From Escherichia phage SR02, in sequence record OQ870566.1: DNA of 64,000 bases. One strand, 5' to 3'. This document shows positions 31,098-60,156 of the stretch, piece after piece. The translations under genes and the position numbers were made by a program. The number at the start of each line of letters is the position of its first letter. The first letter of the stretch is position 1. The notes under the pieces are model-generated. The model made no database searches, was not told the origin of the DNA, and saw nothing but the letters and a program-made list of their open reading frames with translations.

Positions 31098-31107
31098 AAG
31101 GTTAGTT

Positions 31108-32878: not shown

Positions 32879-32887
32879 GAGGTTATC

Positions 32888-34605: not shown

Positions 34606-34684
34606 TCAATGGGTGCCTCTGATAAAGGGGCACAATTTAAAGGTTAATTAGATGAAAGGGTTTACCCTTCAGGTGGATTAGAAA

Positions 34685-36715
34685 ATTTGTGGCATCGTAT
34701 TAGCTGGCGGTAATCTGTCAAGCACTGATTTAGATGTATTCAACCAACTCTTTTATGCTGGAGTGTTCCGAGGACAACATTCCTCTGGTATCTTTGGTCA
34801 GCGTAAGAGCACTAAGGAAGTCTTCACCTATAAAGAAGCCCTTCCTTCTTTCGCATTCATCCTTCAAGATGAGTACAAGAAGCACACCACTGGTGAAACA
34901 GCTTACACTGTAGCACCTTCATGGATTGTTGGTCATAGCCGTCATGCAACGAAAGGTGCAGTTAACGCCAAGAACGCCCATCCTTTCCAACATGGTAACA
35001 TCACTCTGGTTCATAACGGAACCTTGATGGACCAAGATCTGTTACCTGACAGCAAAAACTTCGAGGTAGACAGTGAGAACATCTGCCACTCTATTAACAC
35101 TATTGGTGCAGCAGAGACTATTCAAAAGCTGGATGGTGCTTTCACCTTAATCTGGCATGATGCTTCTGACAACCGTCTTCATATCATCCGTAACGAAGAG
35201 CGTCCATTCCATCTCGCACGTTGTAACAGAGATTGGTTTGGTGCTTCTGAAGAAGACATGTTGATGTGGATTCTGAAGCGTTCTAAGTCTCACAAGAACC
35301 GTATTGATGAGCACTTTGAATGTAAAGTTGGTACAGAGTATATCTTTGACATGTCAAACAACAGTATGACTCTAGTTGAAGAGGTCGCCCACGAGCTTCC
35401 GGTTTTTACGGTAATCAATCGTTGGGGCAATTACTACTCGAACAACTACAGCCAAAGCAATTATCAAAGTTCCTCAAAAAGCAGTACAAGCAATCCTTAC
35501 GACACGAAGCCGGGAGTGACAGCGGCAGACGTTCGTCGAAGAAACGCAGTGGTAAGTCAAAACAAAATCGCAAGCGATCGAAACATTGATATTCGCCGCG
35601 ATATGACTGTGGAAATCACACCACATGAGTTTATTCCTTATGCAACTGCTGGTGCTGTTCCTTCTCGTGGTAAGATGATCGGTTATATCTACGATGAGAA
35701 GTCTCAAGAGTATATCGAAGGTGATGTTCATAACGTAGACATTAAGGCTTATCAGGATGCCCTGAAAGACCCTAAAATTGTTTACCGTGGGACAGTATCC
35801 TGTATCTCCGAAGTTAATGCTATGGTTCGTTTAGTGATCACAGCAGGTCGTTTTGTTGACCCATCTCTGGAGAAAAAGGAGCCTGAGTCTACTACTGCTG
35901 ACTTTGATGATGATATCCCTTTTGATATGAATGATAGTTTCGTCAATAAGAATGGCGTTACTATCACTCGTAAATTCTGGGAAGCACACTCTCATGGCGA
36001 TTGCGGTGGTTGTGACAAACACATTGATTGGAAGGATGCACCTAAAGCAGTCTTCGCATATCAGTGCTATTGGCACCCTGAATGTCTGGAAGGTTTGACT
36101 AAACCTAAAGATGAAGAAGAGGAGGAAACTCCTATTGGTGTTTGTGAAATCTGCGGTGAAGTTAAAACAGAGAACGAGTTCGATGATGAACTTAGTCGTC
36201 TTCGTGGTGAAGATATCTGTAAAGTCTGCGCTGTAGATGTAAAGAAGAAAGTATCTAATGCTACAATCAAAGATGGTTATGTCTGGATTAAAGCAACAGA
36301 TACAACAAACGCCCGTCGTCCTGAATTTGCTTTACGTGTAACTGAAGATATGATTGGTCGTATGACTGTATTACCTTCCTCAGCGAAACAGACAGGCATC
36401 ACTCTGGAGGATGTTGTTGACGCTTATGTTGAGAAACGTAGCAACAGTATTTTTGCAATCTCAACTAAGCCAAAAAAGGAGGAACCTGCTGAGAAAGCAG
36501 GTGTGTTTCCTGAATCACGAACAGCTCTCCGCAAAACTGTTGTCAGCTTCGACGGAAACCGAAGCACTGACTTCACCAAAGCCATGTGGTCAACCCTCGG
36601 CTACTGCTCAGAGTGTTTTAAGCAGATTCCGTGGCGCGATGCTGAAAGTTGTACGCTTGGTTCTATGAATCAAGTTTATTGTAATTCTCCTAAATGTTCA
36701 TTGAATAGAGGTTAA
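34685..36715 (+). CDS. class II (Ntn-type) glutamine amidotransferase with C-terminal Cys-cluster domain; predicted AUU start
   Basis: Translation from 34685 gives (M)CGIVGLAG...GHSRHATKG...HNGTL...DSE; no in-frame ATG/GTG/TTG between the upstream stop and the catalytic Cys codon; AGGTGG 8 nt upstream of ATT. Confidence 0.7.
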   Translation: MCGIVLAGGNLSSTDLDVFNQLFYAGVFRGQHSSGIFGQRKSTKEVFTYKEALPSFAFILQDEYKKHTTGETAYTVAPSWIVGHSRHATKGAVNAKNAHPFQHGNITLVHNGTLMDQDLLPDSKNFEVDSENICHSINTIGAAETIQKLDGAFTLIWHDASDNRLHIIRNEERPFHLARCNRDWFGASEEDMLMWILKRSKSHKNRIDEHFECKVGTEYIFDMSNNSMTLVEEVAHELPVFTVINRWGNYYSNNYSQSNYQSSSKSSTSNPYDTKPGVTAADVRRRNAVVSQNKIASDRNIDIRRDMTVEITPHEFIPYATAGAVPSRGKMIGYIYDEKSQEYIEGDVHNVDIKAYQDALKDPKIVYRGTVSCISEVNAMVRLVITAGRFVDPSLEKKEPESTTADFDDDIPFDMNDSFVNKNGVTITRKFWEAHSHGDCGGCDKHIDWKDAPKAVFAYQCYWHPECLEGLTKPKDEEEEETPIGVCEICGEVKTENEFDDELSRLRGEDICKVCAVDVKKKVSNATIKDGYVWIKATDTTNARRPEFALRVTEDMIGRMTVLPSSAKQTGITLEDVVDAYVEKRSNSIFAISTKPKKEEPAEKAGVFPESRTALRKTVVSFDGNRSTDFTKAMWSTLGYCSECFKQIPWRDAESCTLGSMNQVYCNSPKCSLNRG

Positions 36716-36717
36716 GT

Positions 36718-36951
36718 ATGGAAATTCGTAAGATGATGCTGGATAACGTTGTAACTACTCGACGTATCCCGATGACGAGCACAGGATGTGATAACCTTCG
36801 TGCAATCCAGAAGTGGATGCAAGCTGGTATTGGTCAAGTACTTGAGACACAGGTTGAGGTTCCTTTCCCAACGGTGATCAATAACGTACTTGCTGATTAT
36901 GTAAAAATCAAAGGCATTAAGGTAGAACCTCATGTCAAATCTGGTTCCTAA
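36718..36951 (+). CDS. hypothetical protein (77 aa)
   Basis: ORF in island. Confidence 0.4.
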   Translation: MEIRKMMLDNVVTTRRIPMTSTGCDNLRAIQKWMQAGIGQVLETQVEVPFPTVINNVLADYVKIKGIKVEPHVKSGS

Positions 36952-37156
36952 GAAACCGAAGATCACTCTCCTACAATATTACATAGGAGTTCATATCGAA
37001 TTAGTAACGGAGCAGCGAAAGCTGTATCCGTTCGCTTTCGGTCTGATTGATGCACCATCCGATGAAGTAGAGAACGACGCGTTCAACGACTACTTCGAAA
37101 TTGAAGCTCAGATTCAAAAAACTCGTAACGAAATTCTTAAACTTAAAGGTATCTAA
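36932..37156 (+). CDS. hypothetical protein (74 aa)
   Basis: ORF in island. Confidence 0.4.
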   Translation: MSNLVPKKPKITLLQYYIGVHIELVTEQRKLYPFAFGLIDAPSDEVENDAFNDYFEIEAQIQKTRNEILKLKGI

Positions 37157-37158
37157 CA

Positions 37159-38355
37159 ATGACTACTCGTATCCGTGTTCTTCCTTATGGCCCTTCTGAT
37201 TCAGTTCGTGAACTTACTTCTGCAATTAACACTAAGATTCAGGAACTTCGACTAAATGCTAACGTAATGTCTCTGGTATCAGAAGGCTCTCGTTATCGTT
37301 CTCGTGTTGGTGATATTGTTGTCAACTACGGAAACCGTCGATACAACGACTCTTTCTTTGGTGGCGCAACTGTGTTGAACTCTGTGGTTGCCTTGAACCG
37401 AGCGGCTAACAAAGTTGCAGCATTTAACGCACTGCGTTTAGCTGAAGTCAAAACTGTTGAATACACCGTCGATCGTGAAGTAGCTCAGAACTGGAACCGG
37501 AATGAAATTGTTTATGAACGTGGAACCTTAACTGGTCACTCTGGAGAAGGTATTACTGTTCGTCTTACGCGAGAAGGTGTTGCGGATGCTCCTCTATACA
37601 CCAAAGGCATCCAAGGCCCACGTCGTGAATGGCGTGTTCATGTGTTCGAAGGTGTTATCACTTACGTTCAGAAGAAGATTCGTCGTAATGGTTATCGTGA
37701 ACTGGAAAGTTATCGTGAAGATATTCGTAACCATCACACTGGTTGGGTTTATTCTAACTCCTTCACTGAAGCGCCTCCTGATCAAGTTCTTATTCAAGCT
37801 CACAAAGCTGTATCTGCTCTGGGTTTGAACTTCGGTGCTGTTGACCTGATTAGCAAAGGTACTAACGCATGGGTTCTGGAAGTTAATACAGCTCCGGGCC
37901 TGACTGGCACAACTCTGGAAACCTACACTCACAACATCGTTGAGTTTGTTAAGAGTTTCTCTGGTGTTGATCCTGACTACCGCGTTGCTTACGAACTGCC
38001 TGTTGAAGAAGTGGAAGAAGAATTTGCTGAATCGGCAGATGACGAAAACTTTGCATTGGCAGCTGAGCCAGTTGCTGAAGAGTCTTCGGAGCCTGTTCCT
38101 GAAACAATGCAAGTTGAAGAACAAGGGTTAGAGATCAACCCGGTAACCCGTCGTAATCTGCGTCGTGGTTATTATATCGCTAACATCAAGCATCCTGAAA
38201 ACGGTTCGACTGTAGCAAGTAACGTGATCTTGTTCTTCTGTGGTCGTAACTTCTACCGCTCTGGATGGAACGCACCAATTAGTGATCGTCAGCTTGGTCG
38301 TGTGTTGCAGATTAATAGCCTTACCCTGAATGATGGCACTGTTGTAAACTACTAA
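37159..38355 (+). CDS. ATP-grasp family ligase
   Basis: GAVDLISKGTNAWVLEVNTAPGLTG ATP-grasp signature; acidic C-terminal tail. Confidence 0.75.
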   Translation: MTTRIRVLPYGPSDSVRELTSAINTKIQELRLNANVMSLVSEGSRYRSRVGDIVVNYGNRRYNDSFFGGATVLNSVVALNRAANKVAAFNALRLAEVKTVEYTVDREVAQNWNRNEIVYERGTLTGHSGEGITVRLTREGVADAPLYTKGIQGPRREWRVHVFEGVITYVQKKIRRNGYRELESYREDIRNHHTGWVYSNSFTEAPPDQVLIQAHKAVSALGLNFGAVDLISKGTNAWVLEVNTAPGLTGTTLETYTHNIVEFVKSFSGVDPDYRVAYELPVEEVEEEFAESADDENFALAAEPVAEESSEPVPETMQVEEQGLEINPVTRRNLRRGYYIANIKHPENGSTVASNVILFFCGRNFYRSGWNAPISDRQLGRVLQINSLTLNDGTVVNY

Positions 38356-38361
38356 GGATAT

Positions 38362-38610
38362 ATGGATATGTTTTCATTGGAAGATCTAGTACAAAATGGA
38401 ATGATGGAACAAAAAGAGCCTCTGATTGTAGGCTCTCGTAAAGAGTTGCGTAAATTGTGTGAGGAGTGGGGTATTACTAATCAGCGAATGATTGGTAATC
38501 AATTCTCTGCAATTGTAACTTTCCTAAAACGTGGTGATAAGTATTCTATGGAATGTGTAGAACGTATCATCGCTGAAGCACAACAAGATAAAGGAGTAAC
38601 ATATCTGTGA
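38362..38610 (+). CDS. hypothetical protein (82 aa)
   Basis: ORF in island. Confidence 0.45.
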   Translation: MDMFSLEDLVQNGMMEQKEPLIVGSRKELRKLCEEWGITNQRMIGNQFSAIVTFLKRGDKYSMECVERIIAEAQQDKGVTYL

Positions 38611-38813
38611 ATAAGTATAAAGTCCTGTTTAAAGATACCAATGCAGCTGGCGAAATGCGAGCAATGGATATTGACGCTGAATACTTCCGAAGTGAGCTTG
38701 ATCAGATAGTATTCTATGAGCGCGGTAGTCGACCTGCTAATGAATCAGAAGTTATTGCTTCATTCGGTAAAGAAGCAATCTGCGGTGTAATCAAAATCTT
38801 TATTACAGAGTAA
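38607..38813 (+). CDS. hypothetical protein (68 aa)
   Basis: GTG start overlapping previous stop. Confidence 0.35.
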   Translation: MNKYKVLFKDTNAAGEMRAMDIDAEYFRSELDQIVFYERGSRPANESEVIASFGKEAICGVIKIFITE

Positions 38814-38882
38814 TCTGCTCTAGTCTCTTCGAAAGAGGAGGCTAGTTCGGATAAACTAAACAAACCAACAAAGGTATAGATA

Positions 38883-39302
38883 ATGTCAGAAGTAATTTAC
38901 GTAGCAACTTATGGTTCTCTTCGTCGTGGTCAAGCTAACTATCTAGTTAATGACCGAGCTGGTGCTAAGTCAATTGGTGAAGGTTGGACTGAAGACAACT
39001 TTGATCTGTTCCGCTATGGTGGTTCCTACTTCCCAAGCATCTCTCTCGCACACAGCAATAACAATAAGCCTGTTCGTGTAGAAGTGTTTGCTACTGACAA
39101 AGCAGGTCTGGAAGGTCCATACGATCGTCTGGAAGGTTACAATAAACGTAGCCCTGAAGATAGCTTCTATCAACGAACTCAGATTGCCGTTAAGCTGGAC
39201 TCAGGTGAAACTGTTATCGCTTGGATTTATCACATTGACGAAGAACAAGATGTTCTGGTTGAATCTGGCGACTGGTCAGAGTATCTGAAAAGTGAATCTT
39301 GA
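38883..39302 (+). CDS. gamma-glutamyl cyclotransferase-like (AIG2/GGCT family) protein
   Basis: N-terminal YVATYGSLRRGQANY matches the AIG2 YGSL/TL motif; 139 aa size typical. Confidence 0.6.
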   Translation: MSEVIYVATYGSLRRGQANYLVNDRAGAKSIGEGWTEDNFDLFRYGGSYFPSISLAHSNNNKPVRVEVFATDKAGLEGPYDRLEGYNKRSPEDSFYQRTQIAVKLDSGETVIAWIYHIDEEQDVLVESGDWSEYLKSES

Positions 39303-41312: not shown

Positions 41313-41860
41313 AGAAAAAGAAAGTGTTTGCATTCGATATCGAGAGTAATGCACTGTACGATGACATAACTAAAGTGTGGTGTATTTACATCTTCGATGT
41401 TGAAACTGGTGAAAGGTGGGGCTATCGGCCTCACCAAATTGAAGATGGGATTCGTAAACTTACAGAAGCTGATGTGCTCGTAGGTCATAATATTATTGAC
41501 TTCGACCTTTGTGCTCTGAAGAAGATGTATCCCAATCTGATCGACTATCGTTTTAACGTCTTTGACACTTTATGTCTTAGTCGATATCTTAAACCTGACC
41601 GTATTGGTGACAGTCCTGAGTATCCGAAAGGCGACCCTAGACATGGCCCAAGAGGTCATGGCTTGAAGCAATGGGGTGAGTTCTTAGAGGAACTTAAAGG
41701 TGACTACGGTGAGCAAGAGGAAGCATGGGATGCTTTCACTGAGGATATGTTTACTTATTGTGAACAGGACGTTAACTTAACTGTTAAGGTTTATCTTTTC
41801 TTGTGTGAACTCACGGGATTTGACCCTTACGACCCACCTTCATTATATTGGAAAATGTAA
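41306..41860 (+). CDS. 3'-5' exonuclease (DnaQ-like), T7 DNA polymerase exonuclease-domain homolog encoded separately
   Basis: Exo [11 protein letters not shown], Exo [11 protein letters not shown], Exo [16 protein letters not shown]; by recalled T7 gp5 sequence aligns to its first ~190 residues; likely start is the GTG at 41324. Confidence 0.8.
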
Positions 41861-41861
41861 A

Positions 41862-43160
41862 ATGATTGTTATCCCGATTAACCGAATTGAAGATAAGGTT
41901 GCTCAACAACCTGATATCACTGTTGGTCGTCACTTTATTGAACAGTTGATTAACAACAACTTGATTCCAGATTGTATTTGTCCCATCATCACTGGTGGGG
42001 CTGTTCGTGATGCTGTTCTTAATAATAGAGCACCTCATGACATTGATATCTTTATTGTCAGAGGACAGGCACCAAGAACCCAAAATACTTTTATCCATCA
42101 TGACCAGTGGCAAGATCTCGGACGAGAGGTTGAAAGTAATGTGAAAGAGTGGCTCGAGTCTCAAGATATTGAGTACTCTTCCCTTCTTGCTGAATCTACA
42201 GATGAGCCGTATACTGGGACTTCTCAACTAACATTCACTGATATTATTGAGTTTCAGTGGAATGGGGTTCGTATCCAATTCATGTTTAACTATCCTACTT
42301 CTATTGAAGAGGTATTGGATAATTTTCCTATGATGTGTCGTGGTGCGATGACTCTTGACAAGCTGTTCATGACCCCCCATGGATATTTGTCTATGACCTC
42401 TCCTTGTCCAGTAGTTGTCTCTGGTCGTGAAATCAAGTATGTTCACAAGAAGTGGCCTAATTCACAGGTATTAAGATTCTCCTCTCCATCTGTTGCATAC
42501 CAATATATGGCACAATCTCGATATCTTCCTACACCTCAACCAGTTAATCATCTGGTCAACGAACGAGGTCAGGTTGCTCTTATTGAGGATACAACAAGTG
42601 CTCAGTATTGTGTTGACCGTGACATGAGTCGATTCTTTGGAATCCCTTATGAAGAGATTCAGTTAATGTCAAGCACACATGGCTCTAGCCAGATTCATGC
42701 GTATTGGTCTGAAGGGTTGACAAATTTAACAACTAACACGGGTGGTGATCTACTTGGTCGAGAAGAGGAACCTAACCGACACAATGCAATTGAAGGGGTG
42801 TTTGTAGCCCCTGCAATGCGTAGAGCACAAGAGTCACGAAGAGTAAGCCCTACTCGTAGAACATCTTTTGAAGAAGCTCTTGGTATTACAAGAGATTCTA
42901 TGGAGAGATGGATGGCTAGCACCTCTCGTGGTCGACCAAATGGTTTGACTGTCAGCCGTCATCAGTTCTCTGGTCAGGGCTTTGCTGTTGGCGATCTTGA
43001 TATTCCTTCTCATGGTGAGCTGGCTGAGACTGTCAGTCGCAGTCTCGCTGATCGCTTTGTTGCTAACAACCCTGAAGTATTAGAACCTCAAACCCGTACA
43101 GTTCGGTTTGCTGATGAAGCGGGTCGTGGAATCTCTTTTGACGTAGAAACAAATAACTAA
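41862..43160 (+). CDS. nucleotidyltransferase with CCA-adding-enzyme / poly(A) polymerase-like head domain
   Basis: IITGGAVRDAVLNNRAPHDIDIFIV matches the class II tRNA-NT/PAP head motif GGAVRD...D.D; remaining ~330 aa unassigned. Confidence 0.6.
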   Translation: MIVIPINRIEDKVAQQPDITVGRHFIEQLINNNLIPDCICPIITGGAVRDAVLNNRAPHDIDIFIVRGQAPRTQNTFIHHDQWQDLGREVESNVKEWLESQDIEYSSLLAESTDEPYTGTSQLTFTDIIEFQWNGVRIQFMFNYPTSIEEVLDNFPMMCRGAMTLDKLFMTPHGYLSMTSPCPVVVSGREIKYVHKKWPNSQVLRFSSPSVAYQYMAQSRYLPTPQPVNHLVNERGQVALIEDTTSAQYCVDRDMSRFFGIPYEEIQLMSSTHGSSQIHAYWSEGLTNLTTNTGGDLLGREEEPNRHNAIEGVFVAPAMRRAQESRRVSPTRRTSFEEALGITRDSMERWMASTSRGRPNGLTVSRHQFSGQGFAVGDLDIPSHGELAETVSRSLADRFVANNPEVLEPQTRTVRFADEAGRGISFDVETNN

Positions 43161-43169: not shown

Positions 43170-43724
43170 ATGAGTTTACTAGGAAGCCCAGAGTTACATA
43201 AACTAATTGATGATGGTGTTATTGATGCACCACACTCAGCTGTTAACTCCTCCAGCATTGACGTCCGTATTGGAGATCGTGTTCTGATGGAAGGTGCAGC
43301 TAATGGGGTTGTTGATATCTCTGCTAAAGAATCTCCTAACTTCAACGAGGTTATGATTCCAGAGGAAGGGTTGGTGATCAAACCGGGTGAGTGTTTCTTG
43401 GCTCATACAGTGGAGACATTCAATCTTCCAGACAACATTAGCTGTGACTTCATGCTACGATCTACTGTCGGTCGTTGCTTCTTAGAGCACATGCACGCTG
43501 GTCATGCAGATGGCGGTTGGCATGGCAGTCAGTTAACTATGGAATTCAAGAATGTCCTACAACATCACTCTCTTCTGATCAAGCCGGGGATGCGTATTGG
43601 TCAAATGGAGTTCTTTAAACACTCCTCATCCGAAGAGGACAGTTACGCAACGAAAGGTTCATATAATAACCAACAAGGGCCGACAAAAGCTTTTGGTGGA
43701 ACAAACCATGCTGATATGCTATGA
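43170..43724 (+). CDS. dcd: dCTP deaminase family protein
   Basis: SIDVRIGD, PGECFLAHTVE, LRSTVGR and MEFKN motifs in the order found in Dcd/dUTPase-fold enzymes. Confidence 0.75.
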   Translation: MSLLGSPELHKLIDDGVIDAPHSAVNSSSIDVRIGDRVLMEGAANGVVDISAKESPNFNEVMIPEEGLVIKPGECFLAHTVETFNLPDNISCDFMLRSTVGRCFLEHMHAGHADGGWHGSQLTMEFKNVLQHHSLLIKPGMRIGQMEFFKHSSSEEDSYATKGSYNNQQGPTKAFGGTNHADML

Positions 43725-44217
43725 TGAAGTAGTTGACCTCTTTAATATAGACATGTCAGCACCTTCAGGGCTTTCTTGGAAAAGGAAGCCTAGTAAGTTT
43801 GCTAATGATATAGTAGGTAAACCTGCTGGTAAGCTCACAAAAGATGGATATTATCAAATTCCCTTAGGAGGAGTTCGTGTCCATAATCATAGGATTCTTT
43901 TTGTTCTTTATACTGGTGAGGATTTATCGGATGAATATCAAATAGATCATGCTGACGGTAATAGAGAAAACCTAGAAGAAACTAACCTGAGAAAATGCTC
44001 TCACTCTGAGAATAGTCAGAATGCTAAGACAAGGGTTGATAACAAACTAGGAATCAAGAATGTCTACCGAGAGAAAGGTGGAACGTTCTGTGTATCTGTT
44101 CAAAAAGACGGTAAACGTGAGTCTGTATATGGGGTGAAAACTCTTGAAGAGGCTAAGATTTTGGCTAAGTCTATGAGAAGTAGACTTCATCTCTCCTTTA
44201 ATGTGGATGAAAGATAA
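43708..44217 (+). CDS. HNH homing endonuclease with AP2-like DNA-binding domain
   Basis: HNHRILFVLYTGEDLSDEYQIDHADGNRENLEETNLR HNH core; C-terminal AP2-like GKRESVYGVKTLEEAKILA; overlaps dcd 3' end. Confidence 0.8.
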   Translation: MLICYDEVVDLFNIDMSAPSGLSWKRKPSKFANDIVGKPAGKLTKDGYYQIPLGGVRVHNHRILFVLYTGEDLSDEYQIDHADGNRENLEETNLRKCSHSENSQNAKTRVDNKLGIKNVYREKGGTFCVSVQKDGKRESVYGVKTLEEAKILAKSMRSRLHLSFNVDER

Positions 44218-44412
44218 ATGAAAAAGTTTTGGTTAGTGAAGATTAAGTGGTCATCTGGTTGTACGACTATGACCGCACTACCTACTCGTCAACAGGCTCG
44301 AGATTTTAAAAAGTCTATGTTCCATGGAGATTTAACTAAGAGCGTTAGTATCCATAAGGCCAAGGAGTATTCTTCTGGTCGTGTTTATATCAGCGGAAAG
44401 GTACATTACTAA
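44218..44412 (+). CDS. small MKKxW-family protein (64 aa)
   Basis: Paralogs at 44412 and 45830 share MKK.W start and terminal Y. Confidence 0.45.
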   Translation: MKKFWLVKIKWSSGCTTMTALPTRQQARDFKKSMFHGDLTKSVSIHKAKEYSSGRVYISGKVHY

Positions 44413-44621
44413 TGAAAAAGATGTGGGCTATTCATGTTGTTTGGGATCTTGAGCAACACATGAGAAAAGATAACATCAAATTGTTTGACACTCGCAAAGA
44501 GGCTCGTATTGCTAAGAAACAGTTGAAGACTCTGGGCACAATAGTAAAAAGCGCTGACATACATCGCTGGTATGAAGACCCTAACACTGGTTCTTTTATG
44601 TCTAAAGTAATTTACTACTGA
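44412..44621 (+). CDS. small MKKxW-family protein (69 aa)
   Basis: Paralog of 44218 and 45830. Confidence 0.45.
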   Translation: MKKMWAIHVVWDLEQHMRKDNIKLFDTRKEARIAKKQLKTLGTIVKSADIHRWYEDPNTGSFMSKVIYY

Positions 44622-44693: not shown

Positions 44694-45023
44694 ATGTTAG
44701 ATTTGAGTAAAGTGGCCCCGCCCACTGAAGAGATTACAAAATCCAAGGTGATGCAACAGTTTTATCATCGTGATATGCTTGGTCGCTTTATCAAGAATCG
44801 TGATGTTGTTGCTTGGTCTATCGGTAATCAGGGATATCTGTTGAAGGTTCTTCAGGTCACAGGTTCAACTGCTAAGCGAGTTAAGGTGTATGACCCTGAA
44901 ATGGGGCGTTCTAAGTCAGTAGACCCACAGAACTGCATCGTAATTACCCAGCAGGTAATGGATAACATTGCACGTAACGTTGCTAACTCAGTTGAACTTG
45001 ATGGAGAAAACCCAAATGCATAA
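44694..45023 (+). CDS. hypothetical protein (109 aa)
   Basis: ORF with AGGAGAGAG RBS. Confidence 0.5.
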   Translation: MLDLSKVAPPTEEITKSKVMQQFYHRDMLGRFIKNRDVVAWSIGNQGYLLKVLQVTGSTAKRVKVYDPEMGRSKSVDPQNCIVITQQVMDNIARNVANSVELDGENPNA

Positions 45024-45579
45024 GAATGTCTTTGATTTACCTGAGATTGGTCGTGTCGACTACAATATGTTAGACCGGTCTGAGCTTTCAATCTCTCGCC
45101 TTGAAACAATGCAAGGCATGATTAGTGGAAACAGCCTAGAACACATCCTGAGCTGCTTACAAGCTAACATGGAACTCTTGCATATCAAAGCTAAAAACTA
45201 CCACTGGAACGTCTCTGGTGCAGGATTTCAGGGTGTTCATGGTATGTTTGATGAGCTTGAAGATTACGCACGACAAGTAGGAGATCGTATTGCTGAACGT
45301 ATGCGTTACCACTGTGTTAAAGTGGATGCTACAGCAGCCAATTATCTTTCTCATGCTTGGTTCTCAGAGGGTAATGCTGACCTAGACATGGACGGTATGC
45401 TCTCTGATATGTGCATGACCTTGATGTGTATTATTGAGAAGATGGATGAGTTTGATGGTGATTTAGCCACTTATCCAGTTGATCAGAGTATGCTTCAAGA
45501 AATTAATGAAGGTCTTGGCAAGTATTGCTACTTCGTCAAGAGCAACATGTCCCACTCAAGTGGTGATGTGTCTTATTAA
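45016..45579 (+). CDS. Dps/ferritin-like protein
   Basis: KAKNYHWNVSGAGFQGVHGMFDELEDYARQVGDRIAERM matches the Dps ferroxidase-site helix pattern (recalled E. coli Dps). Confidence 0.6.
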   Translation: MHKNVFDLPEIGRVDYNMLDRSELSISRLETMQGMISGNSLEHILSCLQANMELLHIKAKNYHWNVSGAGFQGVHGMFDELEDYARQVGDRIAERMRYHCVKVDATAANYLSHAWFSEGNADLDMDGMLSDMCMTLMCIIEKMDEFDGDLATYPVDQSMLQEINEGLGKYCYFVKSNMSHSSGDVSY

Positions 45580-45829: not shown

Positions 45830-46030
45830 ATGAAAAAATGGTCCGTAGTTTGTGTTGACCCTTCAGGTGCTATTCTATGGGACTTGACTGGTGATACAAG
45901 GAAAGAGATGCGTATTCTTAAAAAGATGCTCAAAGAAGATAACCCTCAAGGGGATGTTTTTCATTTAGTAAAAACAGAAATGTCCAAAAGTGGGAAGGTC
46001 CAACCTGACTTGAGTAAAATTTACTATTAA
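45830..46030 (+). CDS. small MKKxW-family protein (66 aa)
   Basis: Paralog of 44218 and 44412. Confidence 0.45.
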   Translation: MKKWSVVCVDPSGAILWDLTGDTRKEMRILKKMLKEDNPQGDVFHLVKTEMSKSGKVQPDLSKIYY

Positions 46031-46038: not shown

Positions 46039-46314
46039 ATGTCTAAAGTAATTAAGTTTTATAGTGATCAGTGCGCTCCATGTAAAGCAATGGCTCCTAC
46101 CTTTGAGAAGGTTGTTAAGGAGTTCGATGTAGAAGTGGAAGAGATTAACATCCTTGAAGGTGATGGTCGTGAACAAGCTGTTAAGTATGGTGTACGAAGC
46201 ATCCCTGCTTTTGTTGTACCTGACCGTAACAGTGGTGCACACTACAGCCTCTCCGGTATGCAGACTGAAGCAAACCTGAAAGCATTTTTGGACACAGCCC
46301 TGAGAAATAAGTAA
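46039..46314 (+). CDS. thioredoxin-like protein
   Basis: Active-site CAPCK in WCGPCK position; downstream VRSIPAF cis-Pro motif; 91 aa. Confidence 0.75.
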   Translation: MSKVIKFYSDQCAPCKAMAPTFEKVVKEFDVEVEEINILEGDGREQAVKYGVRSIPAFVVPDRNSGAHYSLSGMQTEANLKAFLDTALRNK

Positions 46315-46329: not shown

Positions 46330-46986
46330 ATGAATGAACAACTACAAGCAACATTAATCGAAGCTATGGGAAGTGATCGTAGCGTAGTAAACGCAGCTCG
46401 AGTTTCCTTTGGCGTAACCCGTGAAGGTGATTTAAATGAACGTGATGAACGTCTCATCAACTTCCTCGCAAGAGAGAAGCATGTCACGCCTTTCAGGCAC
46501 CCGCAAGTCAGTTTCCGATGCAAAGCACCTATCGCAATTGCGAGACAGTTGGGCAAGCATCAGGTTGGATTCTCGTGGAACGAAATGTCCCGGCGGTATA
46601 AAGATGGAGCAGTTGAAGTCTTCATCCCTAAAGAGATTTTTGCGAGACCTTCGGACCTCCATGCAGGTTCAGGGATTCAACTCATCGACGGAGAGCGAGC
46701 TGAAGCATTAATGCTGATTAACGATGCATATGAAGCTTCTCTAGCAGCATATGACAAGTTGATTGAATTTATTGCACCAGAGCAAGCTCGATTTGTTCTT
46801 CCTCAGGGGATGATCACTGAGTGGGTATGGACTGGTTCTTTATATGGCTGGTTTGAGTTATGTCGTCAGCGACTCTCCTCTCACGCTCAATATGAAGTTC
46901 GAGTGTTTGCTAAATCTCTGGATGAAGAGATGGCTAAACTTTACCCAATCTCATGGGCAGCTCTGAAGAAAACTTTGGAGAATTAA
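46330..46986 (+). CDS. thyX: ThyX-like (flavin-dependent thymidylate synthase family) protein with variant signature
   Basis: HVTPFRHPQVSFRCKAPIAIARQLGKHQVGFSWNEMSRRY aligns to the recalled ThyX motif region, but RHR is replaced by KHQ. Confidence 0.6.
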   Translation: MNEQLQATLIEAMGSDRSVVNAARVSFGVTREGDLNERDERLINFLAREKHVTPFRHPQVSFRCKAPIAIARQLGKHQVGFSWNEMSRRYKDGAVEVFIPKEIFARPSDLHAGSGIQLIDGERAEALMLINDAYEASLAAYDKLIEFIAPEQARFVLPQGMITEWVWTGSLYGWFELCRQRLSSHAQYEVRVFAKSLDEEMAKLYPISWAALKKTLEN

Positions 46987-47366: not shown

Positions 47367-47532
47367 CTTCTGTAAGAAAGAGAAGCCTATCGCCAACTTT
47401 AAGCCCAATCCTGTGACTGGTCTGAATCATGTGATGTGTCACTCTTGTAGGATATATCTTGAAACAAAGCACACCATTAACAGGTTGCACTATTATCACC
47501 CAACAACATTCAAATTTAAGGTTGTGAAATGA
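47347..47532 (+). CDS. small zinc-ribbon protein (61 aa)
   Basis: CSFCKKE...CHSCR Cys pairs; start moved to internal ATG. Confidence 0.35.
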   Translation: MEKKICSFCKKEKPIANFKPNPVTGLNHVMCHSCRIYLETKHTINRLHYYHPTTFKFKVVK

Positions 47533-47852
47533 TTGACAGTAATACATTTAGGACTTCAAATGGAAGTGAAATAAGTCCTGCTGAAGTAATTAATCGGCAT
47601 AGAAGGCAATTGATCATCCATTCCTATTTGTATTACTGGTTGGATGACCCTATCTGGTCTGATGATAAATGGCAACAAGTTGCTAATGATTTGGTTGAGT
47701 TGCAAGCCTTATATCCAGAGCCTACCGGAGTCTTTGACAATGAGTTCAAAGATTGGGATGGTTCTACAGGAATGCACCTCCCACATAACGAAGCTGTTGC
47801 TTGTATGGCGACAGCTGTTTACAGACTTCATAAAGGGGTTAACTTCGCATGA
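47529..47852 (+). CDS. hypothetical protein resembling the N-terminal Ia domain of NAD-dependent DNA ligase
   Basis: HSYLYYWLDDPIWSDDKWQQVANDLVELQALYPEP resembles LigA Ia HEYLYH..D.P.I.D.EYD.L...L..LE...PEL; tentative. Confidence 0.4.
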   Translation: MIDSNTFRTSNGSEISPAEVINRHRRQLIIHSYLYYWLDDPIWSDDKWQQVANDLVELQALYPEPTGVFDNEFKDWDGSTGMHLPHNEAVACMATAVYRLHKGVNFA

Positions 47853-48049: not shown

Positions 48050-48231
48050 AGTGCTCTAAATGTGAAGGAACAAACCTTCATTTAAGTAACAAGGTTATCA
48101 GAGAGCTTGCCAAAGGCTCTCCAACCAAAGGGAAGAACAAACGATTTACTAATGTCAGGGTTTATACAGCAATCTGTAAAGACTGCTTAACTACTGAGTG
48201 TCATTACGAAGAAATTGGAGAGCGTAAATGA
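48034..48231 (+). CDS. small zinc-ribbon protein (65 aa)
   Basis: CSKCEG...CKDCLTTEC. Confidence 0.4.
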   Translation: MDIVVKCSKCEGTNLHLSNKVIRELAKGSPTKGKNKRFTNVRVYTAICKDCLTTECHYEEIGERK

Positions 48232-48965
48232 GTCGTCGTCAATCACGGAAAGAATCACGGAAAGATCTTCGTCGGGAAGCACTTGTTACTCGTAAGGGTA
48301 AGCGAGAGTATGAAGAGGTGGTTTTAGCAAAGCCTGTAGTCCCTCAGAACCAGTTTCAGTCTGAGCTACTCAATGCTATTAAGACTAAACAAGTTGTGTT
48401 CACAGACGCTCCTGCGGGCTGTGGTAAGACCTTTGTAATCACTTCCACAGTTATTGATGCACTGAAGAGTGGTAAGATTCAGAAGATCATTCTGAGTCGC
48501 CCTTCGGTAGGCATGGGTAATTCTCTTGGGTTACTTCCGGGAGGAATGCGTGAGAAGTTTGAACCATACCTGATGCCTATCATTGATGTTATTACTCAGC
48601 GATACGGTAAGGGATTCTATGAATGCCAAATCGGAAATGGTAACATTGAGTTTGTACCTCTGGAATATCTCCGTGGTCGTTCTTTCAATGATGCTATTGT
48701 TATTGTTGATGAGTTCCAGAACACAACTAAAGATGAAGCCTTCTCCATCATGACTCGATTGGGAGAAACCTCTCAGCTGTTCTGTATGGGTGATACAAAC
48801 CAGCATGATATGCGTGGTCGTGAGAGTGGTCTTACTTGGGCTACTAACTTTATTGATGAACACGATCTGTATGAGTTCGCTGAGATTGTAGATGGTGAAT
48901 CAGATGATATTGTTCGTTCTGGTTTCTGTAAGGCGATTGTTAAAGCAATGGAAAAGAAAGCTTAA
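48228..48965 (+). CDS. phoH: PhoH-like ATPase
   Basis: Walker A DAPAGCGKTF; IVIVDEFQN Walker B-like; 245 aa. Confidence 0.75.
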   Translation: MSRRQSRKESRKDLRREALVTRKGKREYEEVVLAKPVVPQNQFQSELLNAIKTKQVVFTDAPAGCGKTFVITSTVIDALKSGKIQKIILSRPSVGMGNSLGLLPGGMREKFEPYLMPIIDVITQRYGKGFYECQIGNGNIEFVPLEYLRGRSFNDAIVIVDEFQNTTKDEAFSIMTRLGETSQLFCMGDTNQHDMRGRESGLTWATNFIDEHDLYEFAEIVDGESDDIVRSGFCKAIVKAMEKKA

Positions 48966-49021: not shown

Positions 49022-49339
49022 ATGGCAGACCATGTAGGAAAGAGAGATTATGCACAAGAAAGACGTACCGCAATTGCCCGTGGTGAAACAGGCGTTGGGA
49101 GCAAGAGCGGAGATGCTCAGCGCCACCGTGCACGTCGCATCGTTGAAAAGCGCGATGGAAAAGCTGCTGTCAGAGGTAAAGATGTTGGACACAAACGAGC
49201 TGTCAAGTCTGGAGGCTCTAATGCGTCAAGCAACTTACGTGTTGAATCAGTCAGCTCAAACCGTTCAAACGGCGGCAAAAGTGGTGATCGAGCTGGAAAA
49301 GCAAACGGAGCTAGGAAGGGGGCGTTGAGTGGTTCTTGA
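49022..49339 (+). CDS. basic Gly/Ser/Arg-rich protein (105 aa)
   Basis: AAGGAG RBS 7 nt upstream; preferred over the overlapping 49050 ORF. Confidence 0.5.
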   Translation: MADHVGKRDYAQERRTAIARGETGVGSKSGDAQRHRARRIVEKRDGKAAVRGKDVGHKRAVKSGGSNASSNLRVESVSSNRSNGGKSGDRAGKANGARKGALSGS

Positions 49340-49679
49340 TGACACCCTATCTTATGATGCGGTCACAGGTAACCTATACTACACAAAATCTCCAAGCAAA
49401 GGAGTGATGTGGAACAAAAGCCATCCCGGAAAGATAGCTGGATGTAGGATATCGAAAGGCTATATCGGTGTGTATTTCCAAGGAAGACAATGGAGAGCGC
49501 ACCGGCTTATAGCTACACACTTTATACCAAACCCTAACAATTATCCAGAAGTCAACCACATAAATGGGGTAAAAGACGATAATCGACTGGAGAATCTTGA
49601 ATGGGTATCCGCTTCTGAAAACATACAACACTCCTTTGATACAGGGTTGAATAAAGGACATATTCGTGACAATAACTGA
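49329..49679 (+). CDS. HNH homing endonuclease
   Basis: KGYIGVYFQGRQWRAHRLIATHFIPNPNNYPEVNHINGVKDDNRLENLEWVSASEN HNH_3-type core. Confidence 0.8.
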   Translation: MVLDDTLSYDAVTGNLYYTKSPSKGVMWNKSHPGKIAGCRISKGYIGVYFQGRQWRAHRLIATHFIPNPNNYPEVNHINGVKDDNRLENLEWVSASENIQHSFDTGLNKGHIRDNN

Positions 49680-50201: not shown

Positions 50202-50456
50202 ATGTCTATTGTAAAAATCGTAAATATCATTGATGTAACTCGTACCGGTAAAACTATCAGTTGGAAATTCACCAATAAGCATAGAGGTTCAGAGAACATC
50301 ATTCGTTATATGATTCAACAAAACCCAAATACAGCTCGCACTAACGTACTCCTTCGCGGAGCTGATGGAAAATTTATCTCTTATAAGAATAAGAACGTAG
50401 AAAAATCTTTCCGTGTTGCAGTAGAAAACCTCATCCCATTCCCTAAAGGAGTTTAA
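50202..50456 (+). CDS. hypothetical protein (84 aa), paralog of 50458
   Basis: Shares ...TARTNVLLRGADGKFISYKN...PFPKG with the next ORF. Confidence 0.5.
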   Translation: MSIVKIVNIIDVTRTGKTISWKFTNKHRGSENIIRYMIQQNPNTARTNVLLRGADGKFISYKNKNVEKSFRVAVENLIPFPKGV

Positions 50457-50457: not shown

Positions 50458-50742
50458 ATGAATAAGTTAGCTATGGTTCAGATTCGAGACACATACCCCA
50501 ATCGCCCAGAGCAGAAACCACGTACTTGGTCTTATCTATTGGCTGAGAGTAAGACTATTGATAGTTTCTCTGTAGAGATTGACACTATCCCAAAAAGCAT
50601 CACGCTGCTTCCACATAAAACAGCAAGAACTCATGTGATGTTACGAGATAGCAAAGGTAAATTTATCTCTTATCGAGATGCTCGAATCAACAGTGAAATT
50701 AAAGCTGCTATGGAATCTTTAATGCCATTCCCAAAAGGTTAA
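50458..50742 (+). CDS. hypothetical protein (94 aa), paralog of 50202
   Basis: Tandem duplicate (KTARTHVMLRDSKGKFISYRD...PFPKG). Confidence 0.5.
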   Translation: MNKLAMVQIRDTYPNRPEQKPRTWSYLLAESKTIDSFSVEIDTIPKSITLLPHKTARTHVMLRDSKGKFISYRDARINSEIKAAMESLMPFPKG

Positions 50743-55429: not shown

Positions 55430-55933
55430 ATGGCTGAAGTTTATTTTGCAGGAGATGGTCACTTAGGCCATCGCAACATCTGTAGTTTTCGTAAGCAATT
55501 TAAAAACATAGAAGAACATGACAAAGCAATTCTAGCTGCTTTTGACCATGTAACCAAACGTGATAAAATCTTCTTTACTGGTGATTGGGTGTTTGAAAAG
55601 TATGCCCTTGATATTATCGCTGAAGTAAAAGGAGAGAAGCATCTGGTCTTAGGAAACCATGACAGGTTAGAGCTTCTCCCTGATATGATGAAAGTCTTTC
55701 GTAGAATCTCTGGTGATTTTAAATATAAAGAGTTTTGGGTAACTCATATTCCTATTCACACTGATGAGATGAGAGGGAAGTTTAATATTTATGCTCATAC
55801 TCATAACCATGTAATTGATGATTGGAGATATTTCTGTACATCAATGGAGCAAATTAATTATAAAGCTGTTTCTCTGCAAGAGATTAGGAAGGTTTTCGAT
55901 GAAAGAAGAAAAGAACAAGATCTCATTATTTAA
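55430..55933 (+). CDS. metallophosphoesterase (calcineurin-like Ser/Thr phosphatase family)
   Basis: Ordered motifs GDGHLGH, GDWV, GNHD and HTHNH. Confidence 0.75.
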   Translation: MAEVYFAGDGHLGHRNICSFRKQFKNIEEHDKAILAAFDHVTKRDKIFFTGDWVFEKYALDIIAEVKGEKHLVLGNHDRLELLPDMMKVFRRISGDFKYKEFWVTHIPIHTDEMRGKFNIYAHTHNHVIDDWRYFCTSMEQINYKAVSLQEIRKVFDERRKEQDLII

Positions 55934-56342
55934 AGAACCTGTAGTTTATAAAGACTCTATCAGAGATCAATATAATGAGATGTTAAAGAAACAAGCTGAT
56001 TCTAATCTTCGTTATCAGAGGATAGTAGAACAATCTAACTTTAAGGGTTTACTTGAATGGTAACTTATATTCTTTACTTTTTGGCTTTCTTAGGAATAAT
56101 CTTTTTATCTATTATTCTTGAATTTGGTTTAAGTAAGTTAGTTAATTATTTAGGTAGTAAGTAATTAATATTCTTTTAAATAGAGAATCAAAGTCCCTAG
56201 GAGTCCCTACAACCTAAATCAAGGATTCCTTAATTCTCTATTTTTATCTCGCAGGTGGCTCCTGCCCTTCGGTACTTGCAAGGGATTCTGTGAATTGCCC
56301 AATGTACAAGCCTGCAAGAGTTATTCTCTAACTCTACCTTAT

Positions 56343-56351
56343 ATACATTAC
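56343..56351 (-). promoter_or_regulatory. candidate phage-sigma promoter element TAATGTATA, divergent from the one at 56403
   Basis: Exact 9-mer on the minus strand inside an ORF-free AT-rich region. Confidence 0.3.
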
Positions 56352-56402
56352 CATTAGTGAGTATCTACTACCAATAAAATGATACTTATCTTACAAAAGT
56401 TA

Positions 56403-56411
56403 TAATGTATA
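56403..56411 (+). promoter_or_regulatory. candidate phage-sigma promoter element TAATGTATA
   Basis: Exact 9-mer 60 nt upstream of the ORF at 56471. Confidence 0.4.
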
Positions 56412-56470
56412 TTATACATAACCGCTCAAAGAGAGCAACAATCTATCAAATTAAATAAGGAAATTAAAAT

Positions 56471-57217
56471 ATGTCTATGATTCCAACTATCGCAACTTCT
56501 TCCCGTAAATCCAACTACGACATTATCCCTGATGGTGAGTACGAAGCACGTATTGTTCGTGTAGTAGGTTTAGGTGTTCACAATCGTGACCCTTGGGTTG
56601 ACCCGAAGACCAAAGCAGTAACTCCTAAGAATCCAGCTTTCCGTATGGATTTGGCTTTCGAGCTGATTGGTGTTGATGCTACTGGTAAAGATTCCGATGG
56701 TAAGGCATTAGAACCGCGTCCAGCTTGCCAGTTCAAGAGCTATGATGTAAACCCACGAGCTAAGAACTCTGGTATTCTTGATCTTTGCAAGATGATTGAC
56801 CCAAGTATTCAAGCACTGAAAGGTGATCTGTCTTGGTTCAAGGATGTTCTGTTAGGCCAGCCTGTTAACATTCTGGTTAACTCTTACACTAACAAAGCTG
56901 GTGAAGTTAAAAACTCCATCAAGACCATTTCTCCAATCCCAACCAAATATCGTGCAGCAGTTGGTGAAGCTCGTAGTCCTCTGGTATTCTTCGAACCGTA
57001 TGCTGAAACCGATGAGAACGTAGCATCCTATCAACTGATGTTCCCGTTCCAGCGCAACCTGCTTACCCAAGCTAATGACGCTAAGAACATGCCTCTGGCT
57101 GGTCGTGAAATTACTCGTGCTTCTGAAACAGAACAGAAAGAAGCTACTCCTTCAATCCCTACGATTGATAGAGAGCCTACTTCTACTTACGAAGACGACA
57201 ACGATAGCCCATTCTAA
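56471..57217 (+). CDS. putative single-stranded DNA-binding protein (gp2.5-like acidic tail)
   Basis: 248 aa between a promoter motif and a strong terminator; C-terminus YEDDNDSPF is acidic and ends in Phe as in T7 gp2.5; no direct sequence similarity seen. Confidence 0.4.
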   Translation: MSMIPTIATSSRKSNYDIIPDGEYEARIVRVVGLGVHNRDPWVDPKTKAVTPKNPAFRMDLAFELIGVDATGKDSDGKALEPRPACQFKSYDVNPRAKNSGILDLCKMIDPSIQALKGDLSWFKDVLLGQPVNILVNSYTNKAGEVKNSIKTISPIPTKYRAAVGEARSPLVFFEPYAETDENVASYQLMFPFQRNLLTQANDAKNMPLAGREITRASETEQKEATPSIPTIDREPTSTYEDDNDSPF

Positions 57218-57238
57218 TAACTCTCCTTGTTATAGCTT

Positions 57239-57263
57239 AGCCACCTTCGGGTGGCTTTTTTCG
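57239..57263 (+). terminator. strong rho-independent terminator
   Basis: Perfect hairpin AGCCACC-UUCG-GGUGGCU followed by UUUUUU. Confidence 0.8.
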
Positions 57264-57274
57264 TTGGAGATAAC

Positions 57275-57625: not shown

Positions 57626-57766
57626 GTGTAGGGTTGATCTACCTTTTTTAGGGAGTGCTCAAGGAAAGGCACTAGCCACTACGTTGGAGTGGTATCAGGA
57701 CCAGTACACAGAATGTGCTGCTAATCACAATGGATTGTTAGAAGCCCTTAAAGAGCGTGGAATAGA

Positions 57767-57770
<4 letters not shown>
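57510..57770 (+). CDS. candidate o-spanin (Rz1-like) lipoprotein, overlapping the previous gene in another frame
   Basis: Signal peptide with lipobox (FIMSALVMSMSAC); Pro-containing mature part with Cys residues; overlapping arrangement typical of Rz/Rz1. Confidence 0.4.
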
Positions 57771-59256
<1,486 letters not shown>

Positions 59257-59266
<10 letters not shown>

Positions 59267-60156
59267 ATGAAGAGGTAAAAGCTTTAAAGAAAGCTCTTGC
59301 AATTAAAATCAAACATTTAAATTTCGTCAGAGATGAGTTGGAGGAGCTATCCAACTTATCAGGATATGAGTTACAGAATGAGCTTGTAGAGTTTCAAATC
59401 AATATTGATGGCGGTAAATACGTAGAAACAACTAGAGCGATTTTACCTAAAGTTACTGGTAACAAAACTCCTCCAATAGACTACTCACATGACCACATGG
59501 AGCAATTAGAAATGGAATCTCAAGGCAATCCAGCACTGACCAATATGGTGGGAGGTTCTCACTATAAGCCTTTAGTAGTAATTCTTAATGGGCCTCCGGG
59601 TTGTGGTAAAGATACGATAGCCAATGCTTGGGTCAATGCACATTCATACCATCACAATCATTTAACCAAATCCTTCAAGGAGCCGATGTATAGAGTGGCT
59701 GCTGCTGCACTAGGAATGCCTCTAGAAAACTTCCTAGCACGCTATGAAGATCGTGAATGGAAAGAAAAATCTAGACCAGAGTGGGGAGGGAAGTCTGTAA
59801 GAGATTTGATGATTTCTACAAGTGAAGACTTCTTAAAACCTATGTTTGGCAACAATCATATGGGGAATCTCGCTGTAAAGAGCATCAAACAAGAGGAGTT
59901 AGGTCAGGATGACATTATTGTTTTTACTGACGGAGGTTTTGATGCAGAGGTACGAGAACTAGAAAAGAATTTCAATGTCCAAGTTGTCCAAGTGCTTAGG
60001 GATGGTTGTTCTTTCGATGGAGACTCTCGCTCGTACATTGAAGGGGAGCAGAGAAAAACATATCTGCTGTTTAATGACTCAACTATTGAATCAGCAGTGT
60101 CAGATTTAGATTGGATTATATCTCAAGCTCAGGATGATATTTATGGAAGACGTTAA
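59257..60156 (+). CDS. P-loop nucleotide kinase (dNMP kinase-like) with ~100 aa N-terminal extension
   Basis: Walker A ILNGPPGCGKDT of the GKDT subtype seen in phage dNMP kinases; C-terminal lid-like region. Confidence 0.55.

Follow-up and report, generated by a model that had tools for sequence, protein, structure and literature searches.

The thyX gene of Escherichia phage SR02, at positions 46330..46986 (+ strand) of the 64,000-nucleotide stretch of sequence record OQ870566.1 analysed here (the window), very probably encodes a working thymidylate synthase dependent on flavin adenine dinucleotide (FAD). The enzyme would feed a route from deoxycytidine triphosphate (dCTP) through deoxyuridine triphosphate (dUTP) and monophosphate (dUMP) to thymidine monophosphate (dTMP), and is most likely an ordinary producer of dTMP, not a DNA-modifying enzyme. 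Within the flavin-dependent thymidylate synthases (ThyX), it represents a variant subclass with the motif K-H-x / S-R-R-Y, which we term class 2. The analysis established directly the homology, the fold, how residues are conserved and covary, and the gene contexts; from the homology we infer enzyme activity. Residue numbers are those of Thermotoga maritima ThyX unless query numbering is indicated.

The gene product belongs to the ThyX family

The 218-amino-acid product, which begins at an ATG start codon, is a ThyX family member by every profile and fold criterion. In Pfam, Thy1 (PF02511) matched the protein with an E value of 1.8e-43 and 149 bits (gathering cut-off 24.8) over profile positions 1-190 of 191, well outside what chance would give. 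The protein passed the NCBIfam equivalog TIGR02170 with 128.2 bits against a cut-off of 87.9 and matched PHROG 85 at E 8e-63. A phmmer search of the PDB returned the Thermus thermophilus and T. maritima ThyX proteins at E 3e-31 and E 8e-25, respectively. An AlphaFold2 model of the monomer without ligands, computed from 60 homologues, had a predicted local distance difference test score (pLDDT) of 90.1 and a predicted template modelling score (pTM) of 0.84, with confidence dropping only in the motif and active-site loop. ThyX enzymes (EC 2.1.1.148) are FAD-binding homotetramers in which three subunits build each active site. Foldseek searches with this model gave ThyX structures as all of the 50 best PDB matches (template modelling [TM] score 0.75-0.81, E about 1e-17), and the model superposed on T. 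maritima ThyX (1O26/8REO, including dUMP complexes) with a TM score of 0.81. More than 100 phage records already label the thyX product as a thymidylate synthase. An AAGGA Shine-Dalgarno-like element lies about 9 nucleotides 5' of the ATG, and 15 nucleotides separate the thyX start from the stop codon of the preceding thioredoxin gene.

The signature motif departs from the classical form

The variant signature maps to 46543..46599 (+), where alignments give R72-Q73-L-G-K76-H77-Q78-V-G80-F-S-W-N84-E85-M-S87-R88-R89-Y90 in query numbering. The equivalent T. maritima residues are R74, Q75, R78, H79, R80, N85, E86, S88, G89, R90 and Y91, with one residue inserted in the query. HMMER aligned ARQLG-KHQ-VGFSWNEM-SRRY of the query with ARQWF-RHR-IA-SYNEL-SGRY of T. 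maritima; T. thermophilus has the same motif as T. maritima. R78 is changed to lysine and R80 to glutamine, H79 is retained, and the inserted residue lengthens the spacer to the serine to eight residues versus seven in the canonical motif. G89 is replaced by an arginine (R88 of the query), giving "SRRY", and E58 corresponds to R56 of the query.

An earlier note on this DNA, made from the sequence alone, had aligned the protein to ThyX, an assignment confirmed by Pfam, TIGR02170, PHROG, the PDB alignment and the AlphaFold2 fold. Its reading of KHQ in place of RHR held in the HMMER alignment to both reference enzymes; the residue counts that it gave between motif positions were each off by one, and it missed both the insertion and G89R. 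It was also right that two of the three RHR residues are changed, and the contact of R78 and R80 with dUMP to which it referred is backed by PMC3498832.

The query holds all eight uracil-binding and catalytic residues: H51, Q73, E85, S87, R89, Y90, R154 and R181, which correspond to H53, Q75, E86, S88, R90, Y91, R147 and R174 of T. maritima. Published studies of T. maritima ThyX place these residues in folate stacking and the H53-Y91 switch; R174 activates uracil, and S88, R90 and Y91 serve in the consumption of the carbinolamine.

Covariation points to a relocated arginine

Eight phage ThyX genes from across the identity range were aligned with the query and with T. maritima and T. thermophilus ThyX as structural references. 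All seven RHR-type proteins (T. maritima, T. thermophilus, Gordonia Fazel, Mycobacterium CharlieB, Pseudomonas PaMx25, Loktanella pCB2051-A and Streptomyces Sujidade) had E58 together with glycine or alanine at position 89. By contrast, E58 was absent and R89 present in all four non-RHR proteins, namely the query (KHQ), Klebsiella GADU21 (KHK), Streptomyces Angela (KYT) and Bacillus 056SW001B (KYL). The three sites thus appear to covary, as would be expected of two arrangements of the same active site.

In T. maritima ThyX, R78, R80, S88 and R90 hydrogen-bond dUMP (PMC3498832), and R78 is directed at N1/C2=O of the flavin in its reduced state (PMC11940539). In the ThyX of PBCV-1, the side chain of Gln-89 is able to occupy the dUMP phosphate pocket (PMC3498832); because it reaches this pocket, an arginine at position 89 would be a sterically plausible phosphate ligand. 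We infer that in class 2 position 89 has taken over from position 80 as the site of the phosphate-binding arginine and that function has not been lost, with R88 of the query acting as the substitute ligand. Under this scheme, lysine at position 78 would still put a positive charge at the interface between flavin N1/C2=O and dUMP. R80, no longer a ligand, would be free to drift (Q/K/T/S/E and others), and E58, its probable partner, would be lost. One residue would have been inserted in the loop, and in the flexible loop of the active site an arginine would have appeared at position 89 (S-R-R-Y). The phosphate would be surrounded by as many basic residues as before (R74, K78, R89 and R147 versus R74, R78, R80 and R147). 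We also considered E58R as the compensation for R80Q and rejected it, as position 58 is variable (A/G/S/R/F/N) and only the loss of glutamate is general.

The class-2 motif is conserved in viral relatives

We assembled about 350 relatives with 39-100% identity, consisting of the 120 closest database relatives and the 150 best cluster representatives (270 sequences together) and 80 IMG/VR viral contigs. The 120 closest relatives (54-92% identity) came, with few exceptions, from named phages or from contigs of phage size. The pattern KHQ.GFSWNE.S[RM]RY was present in 119 of them, and in their alignment K78 and Q80 were conserved in 120 out of 120 and H79 in 119 out of 120. Among 60 close relatives, K76, Q78, G80, W83, N84, E85, S87, R89 and Y90 (query numbering) were invariant, and H77 and R88 were conserved in at least 90%. 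The 150 cluster representatives (39-56% identity) showed [K/R]-[H/S]-x, the eight-residue spacer and S-R-R-Y; RHR occurred once.

Across the 270 relatives (39-92% identity), H53, Q75, E86, S88, R90, Y91, R147 and R174 were conserved in 95-100%. Position 78 was lysine in 238 and arginine in 30, position 79 was histidine, with serine in 17, and position 89 was arginine in 254. Position 80 was glutamine in 205, followed by T, K, V, H and N, with arginine in only four. The canonical glutamate at position 58 was never found, either in these 270 sequences or in the 80 IMG/VR contigs. All 80 contigs carried K78, H79, R89 and the eight catalytic and uracil-binding residues, and hence K-H-x...SRRY, with position 80 distributed as K37/Q22/T13/S5/E3; the scan of viral contigs used a mixed-class alignment and gave only query-like (class-2) loci, and its counts are not an unbiased census of class 1 versus class 2. 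In total, about 25 positions were near-absolutely conserved over about 350 sequences, at identities down to 39%.

The classical ThyX signature is RHRX7S (Myllykallio 2002, as quoted in PMC2826268). Because the deviation from it is common to the whole subclass, RHRX7S is a property of the canonical class, covering one of two arrangements, and not of everything that the family's hidden Markov models recognise.

Some class-2 relatives (P0122, P0187, P0224, P0225 and others) are 465-642 amino acids long and have insertions of 157-435 residues within the signature loop, which are most likely inteins. Intein-sized insertions are typical of essential active-site segments, and we therefore counted them in favour of function.

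The loss of two signature arginines, in a phage whose host already has ThyA, would suit a catalytically dead ThyX-like protein that survives in a different role, for instance in binding nucleotides or in regulation, or a gene in decay. We consider this extremely unlikely. The open reading frame (ORF) is intact and full-length and has a ribosome-binding site, the near-absolutely conserved positions include every catalytic residue, and inteins are kept in the motif loop.

No close relatives were found in 185,579 cellular species genomes, except on one contig of 526 nucleotides. An RHT-type relative on a 559-kb contig was considered as a cellular case and rejected, its neighbourhood being giant-virus-like. 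Class 2 is a large group that is almost confined to viruses.

Neighbouring genes suggest a dTMP supply route

The dCTP deaminase gene dcd (43170..43724, +) lies 2.6 kb upstream of thyX and was identified by Pfam DCD (E 1.3e-31), the TIGR02274 equivalog (100.3 bits versus 92.8) and PHROG 1663 (E 2e-54); its product, dUTP, is the precursor of the ThyX substrate. A thioredoxin with a CAPC active site is encoded immediately upstream of thyX (46039..46314, +; Pfam Thioredoxin E 2.1e-13). The earlier note had named both of these neighbours correctly. It had also placed a P-loop nucleotide kinase nearby, but this protein is a PhoH-like ATPase (48228..48965, +; full-profile match to Pfam PhoH, E 1.7e-56; PHROG 170 E 4e-82), which is not a nucleotide kinase and is not counted in the proposed pathway. 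The actual deoxynucleoside monophosphate (dNMP) kinase-like gene lies 12 kb from thyX (59257..60156, +) and encodes a P-loop protein of 299 amino acids that matched PHROG 139, "deoxynucleoside monophosphate kinase" (E 3.1e-54), and gave only a weak P-loop match in Pfam and the PDB. A DNA polymerase, a primase-helicase and an exonuclease are also phage-encoded.

In the pathway that we propose, flux would run from dCTP to dUTP via phage Dcd, to dUMP via host Dut, to dTMP via phage ThyX, to thymidine diphosphate probably via the phage dNMP kinase, and to thymidine triphosphate (dTTP) via host Ndk; this logic is that of established E. coli pyrimidine metabolism. The chemistry of ThyX would be unchanged: reduced FAD would take the methylene of methylenetetrahydrofolate (CH2-THF), transfer it to C5 of dUMP and reduce it. 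ThyX would use CH2-THF, FAD and NADPH (the reduced form of nicotinamide adenine dinucleotide phosphate) without making dihydrofolate, and no DHFR would be needed. The route would shift the nucleotide pool from C to T, suiting a genome of 41-42% guanine-cytosine (GC) content in a host of about 51% (about 9 points lower). The GC content of the window is 39-46%.

We examined three further class-2 contexts. In one, from a relative with 53% identity (L003), thyX is accompanied by DCD, a ferritin-like gene and NrdD/NrdG. The second (L004) contains a Dam methylase, a dNMP kinase and helicases, and the third (L005) a primase, a DNA polymerase, a ligase and a DCD/dUTPase-like gene. These are ordinary contexts of deoxynucleotide (dNTP) supply and replication, and we found no modification genes beside thyX in any of the three. 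The thioredoxin was rejected as a dedicated ThyX partner, its adjacency not being kept in these contexts.

The tight association of thyX with a dCTP deaminase of the monofunctional type, seen in the window, L003 and L005, could also be taken to mean that the substrate has changed, with a rearranged basic cluster (K76, R88 and, in kuraviruses, R56; query numbering) accepting deoxyuridine diphosphate or the dUTP made by Dcd, or else uridine monophosphate, as in PolB. The substituted residues are indeed those reported as nucleotide-phosphate binders, and a ThyX homologue with altered sugar specificity was among the PDB matches (4p5a, E 1.4e-16), which we take to be PolB, a homologue from an antibiotic pathway. 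However, the basic residues at the phosphate site are unchanged in number, not more numerous, and R56 is not conserved across the subclass. Moreover, E. coli dUTPase is efficient and the supply of dUMP is not limiting, and we know of no precedent for a dUTP methylase. A change of substrate is therefore very unlikely in our view.

Evidence for and against DNA modification

Several observations weigh against a plain dTMP-making enzyme. The query reads KHQX8S where the classical signature is RHRX7S, differing at two of the four specified residues and in the spacing, and the two arginines that it lacks, R78 and R80, are direct dUMP ligands in T. maritima. Two relatives combine KHQ with G89, and compensation by R89 is thus not absolute. 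With relatives nearly absent from cells, there is no cell in which a class-2 ThyX is demonstrably the sole thymidylate synthase, and in the literature that could be reached we found no biochemical or genetic assay of any class-2 ThyX. Finally, Gordonclarkvirinae are strongly resistant in vivo to restriction-modification (RM) systems of types I-III and have no known modification pathway or inhibitor (PMC11990801). Resistance despite the 10 EcoRI, 29 EcoRV, 5 EcoKI and 82 EcoP1 target sites in the window would fit base modification, and on account of these sites we rejected missing target sites as the cause of the RM resistance in the BASEL tests.

This resistance, unexplained despite many target sites, would be accounted for by a neofunctionalised ThyX that places a different C5 group on dUMP, for example by water capture of the exocyclic-methylene intermediate to give 5-hydroxymethyl-dUMP (5-hmdUMP); thymidine replacement or hypermodification would then shield Kuravirus DNA. 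R78, which stabilises the anionic reduced flavin, is substituted, and the phage brings its own dNMP kinase and DNA polymerase. Mishanina and colleagues are said to have trapped 5-hmdUMP from ThyX reactions by acid quench in 2012. In addition, a phiEco32-type "amidoligase" cluster (29524-39302, +) lies directly upstream of the replication module, and kin of its amidoligase, glutamine amidotransferase (GATase), ATP-grasp, COOH-NH2-ligase and GGACT families occur in hypermodification clusters (PMC8989533). Amidoligase and amidotransferase genes co-associate with thymidine-hypermodification clusters in viromes (PMC8989533).

The cluster, on the + strand throughout, encodes COOH-NH2_lig (32072-32878), Amidoligase_2 (33502-34605), a class-II glutamine amidotransferase (34763-36715), a weakly matched ATP-grasp protein (37159-38355) and GGACT (38883-39302). 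Its remaining ORFs are without a Pfam or NCBIfam family and encode proteins of 120 (29524-29886), 399 (29898-31097), 323 (31108-32079) and 205 amino acids (32888-33505).

We nevertheless regard an altered product as unlikely. None of the catalytic and uracil-binding residues has been lost, those for the reductive steps included, and the motif is shared by numerous phage lineages that are unrelated, have no amidoligase cluster and carry it in plain dNTP-supply contexts. Pfam and PHROG scans of the ORFs at 28.4-39.3 and 41.3-60.9 kb, together with the annotation of the relative Bas90, revealed no 5-HMUDK, aGPT-Pplase, glycosyltransferase or recognisable dTTP-exclusion enzyme, although three ORFs of the amidoligase cluster (399, 323 and 205 amino acids) are without a detectable family and the absence of hypermodification genes is hence not proven. 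The mark of a thymidine-hypermodification pathway, 5-HMUDK with aGPT-Pplase near the synthase or polymerase, was not seen, and the earlier note had likewise seen no glycosyltransferase or aGPT-Pplase gene.

The restriction sites in the window tell in the same direction. CCWGG occurs 9 times versus 92 expected and GATC 147 times versus 301, and there are no BamHI, PstI, KpnI, SacI or SphI sites; EcoRV, EcoP15I-like CAGCAG and SspI sites are not avoided. The termini of phiEco32 have been mapped via restriction profiling. Together, the marked site avoidance and this mapping point to DNA that is open to restriction enzymes. Plain 5-hydroxymethyldeoxyuridine, moreover, protects only weakly against type II enzymes. 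N4, which lacks thyX, is likewise said to protect its DNA in vivo, so the RM resistance of large podoviruses need not stem from base modification. Our literature search found no nucleoside analysis of a Kuravirus; the SU10, YF01 and Korf et al. papers add only the phiEco32 restriction profiling.

The dCTP deaminase and the nucleotidyltransferase encoded beside it have led to the speculation that Gordonclarkvirinae have DNA containing deoxyuridine (dU-DNA); the paper concerned (PMC11990801) does not mention the ThyX gene. The "nucleotidyltransferase" of 451 amino acids (41805-43160, +) lies between the polymerase exonuclease subunit and dcd, and the BASEL authors singled it out as a possible DNA-modification gene. 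It matched PHROG 12715 (E 6e-239) and, below threshold, the PolyA_pol head domain, and a sequence search found no PDB relative. Wholesale dU-DNA of the PBS1/2 type would entail that the phage makes no thymidylate and excludes dTTP; because a strongly conserved ThyX homologue with an intact catalytic core is present, the sequence argues against it. Some form of DNA modification is possible in kuraviruses.

Taken together, these results do not support the altered chemistry and non-canonical nucleotide pathway envisaged in the earlier note, as the substitutions are subclass-wide and covary with the gain of R89 and the loss of E58, the catalytic residues are kept and the contexts are ordinary. The alternative that it offered, a divergent thymidylate synthase, is favoured by the intact catalytic core, the profiles and the fold. 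The unexplained RM resistance and the amidoligase cluster keep the idea of altered chemistry alive, and it is conceivable but improbable that a class-2 ThyX with an altered product or substrate starts thymidine modification in kuraviruses, possibly elaborated by the amidoligase/GATase/ATP-grasp cluster, and so explains the resistance.

If the enzyme makes dTMP, its role is routine phage nucleotide metabolism, and RHRX7S, the textbook signature, does not hold for every ThyX. A large class confined to viruses, with K-H-x and an arginine moved to the active-site loop, would then yield testable predictions about the dUMP-binding arginines. The class-2 motif also matters for motif-based filters, which discard such sequences. 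If instead the product is altered, this would be the first ThyX-type entry into phage DNA modification and would explain the RM resistance of common therapeutic coliphages.

Other features of the thyX region

The 6 kb around thyX share 93-97% nucleotide identity with the Kuravirus/phiEco32-like E. coli podophages EcoN5, ES17, SU10, NJ01, 172-1 and SkaterBoy_Bas90, and a 76.6-kb IMG/VR contig encodes a 100% identical ThyX. The region is a co-directional early/middle operon for replication and nucleotide metabolism, broken by HNH homing endonucleases. Two HNH_3 homing endonuclease ORFs, one overlapping the 3' end of dcd (43597-44217, +) and one at 49329-49679 (+), are insertions that explain most coverage differences between related phages.

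A Dps/ferritin-like protein is encoded between dcd and thyX (44968..45579, +; Pfam Ferritin E 2.9e-07; PHROG 3636 E 3e-55; NCBIfam Dps below cut-off). The DCD-Thy1-NrdD-NrdG block of the 53%-identical relative likewise includes a ferritin-like gene (4564-5073 of L003). Such genes may be recurring partners of phage nucleotide-metabolism modules.

Downstream of thyX, a protein of 107 amino acids (47529-47852, +) consists only of Nlig-Ia, the Ia N-terminal domain of NAD-dependent DNA ligase that binds nicotinamide adenine dinucleotide (NAD+) (Pfam E 4e-35). It is annotated as "DNA ligase" in relatives, yet its adenylation and OB domains are missing; a modulating effect on host LigA is conceivable. 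Two sets of paralogous small ORFs occur in tandem or near-tandem on the + strand. The members of the first (44218-44412, 44412-44621 and 45830-46030) encode 64-69 amino acids, starting with MKK.W and ending in ..Y(Y), and those of the second (50202-50456 and 50458-50742) encode 84-94 amino acids ending in ..L(I/M)PFPKG. A run of nucleotide-related small enzymes stands beside the dNMP kinase (55430-60156, +) and includes a Metallophos phosphoesterase (55430-55933, +), a Macro domain protein (57767-58210, +), a sigma-factor-like protein (58230-58877, +) and a YspA/SLOG domain protein (58874-59266, +).

Comparison with known systems

The ThyA-family dUMP/dCMP hydroxymethylases (SPO1, phiW-14 and T4 gp42) offer a functional analogy for an altered product only. 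In these phages, a thymidylate-synthase scaffold has been retuned to 5-hydroxymethyl pyrimidine nucleotides (PMC8989533, PMC5889632), but its fold is unrelated to ThyX and its mechanism uses a thiolate. All thymidine-hypermodification pathways known so far begin with an enzyme of the ThyA type, and neither of the two papers describes a ThyX-type hydroxymethylase.

Compared with T. maritima ThyX (TM0449; 1O26, 8REO) and T. thermophilus ThyX (6J61), the query has the same domain over its full length, with 32-33% identity and the same predicted fold. All three share H53, T55, R74, Q75, H79, N85, E86, S88, R90, Y91, R147, R174 and H178. The query differs from T. maritima ThyX in R78K, R80Q, E58R, G89R and a spacer, from the RHR position to the serine, that is longer by one residue, and also in N163S, R165Y and N169E, three positions that differ between T. 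maritima and T. thermophilus too. Unlike these two enzymes, the lineage of the query is virus-restricted. Among the PDB matches, the only viral ThyX with solved structures is that of PBCV-1 (A674R; 2CFA, 4FZB), which is distant from the query (E 1.7e-07); the role proposed for the arginine at position 89 draws on its Gln-89, which can swing into the dUMP phosphate pocket.

The RHR-type ThyX proteins of phages (mycobacteriophage, Gordonia and some Streptomyces phages, and Pseudomonas PaMx25) are homologous to the query, with 27-32% identity, and identically annotated; they go by the name "ThyX-like thymidylate synthase". They keep E58, R78-H79-R80 and G/A89 and are thus canonical, whereas the query has the other arrangement. 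Class-2-like ThyX proteins occur in Salmonella phage 7-11, GJ1-like 52-kb coliphages, the Klebsiella N4-like phage GADU21 (KHK) and Streptomyces phage Angela (KYT). Roseophage SIO1, Rheinheimera Barba phages, GJ1-like TH53, 4HA13 and SKA49 are similarity matches only. The Streptomyces and Bacillus phage proteins have tyrosine at position 79 and longer loop insertions. Position 80 varies among the class-2-like proteins. All class-2-like proteins with a motif that was read carry K78, a residue other than arginine at position 80, R89 in "SRRY" and a conserved catalytic core, as does the query.

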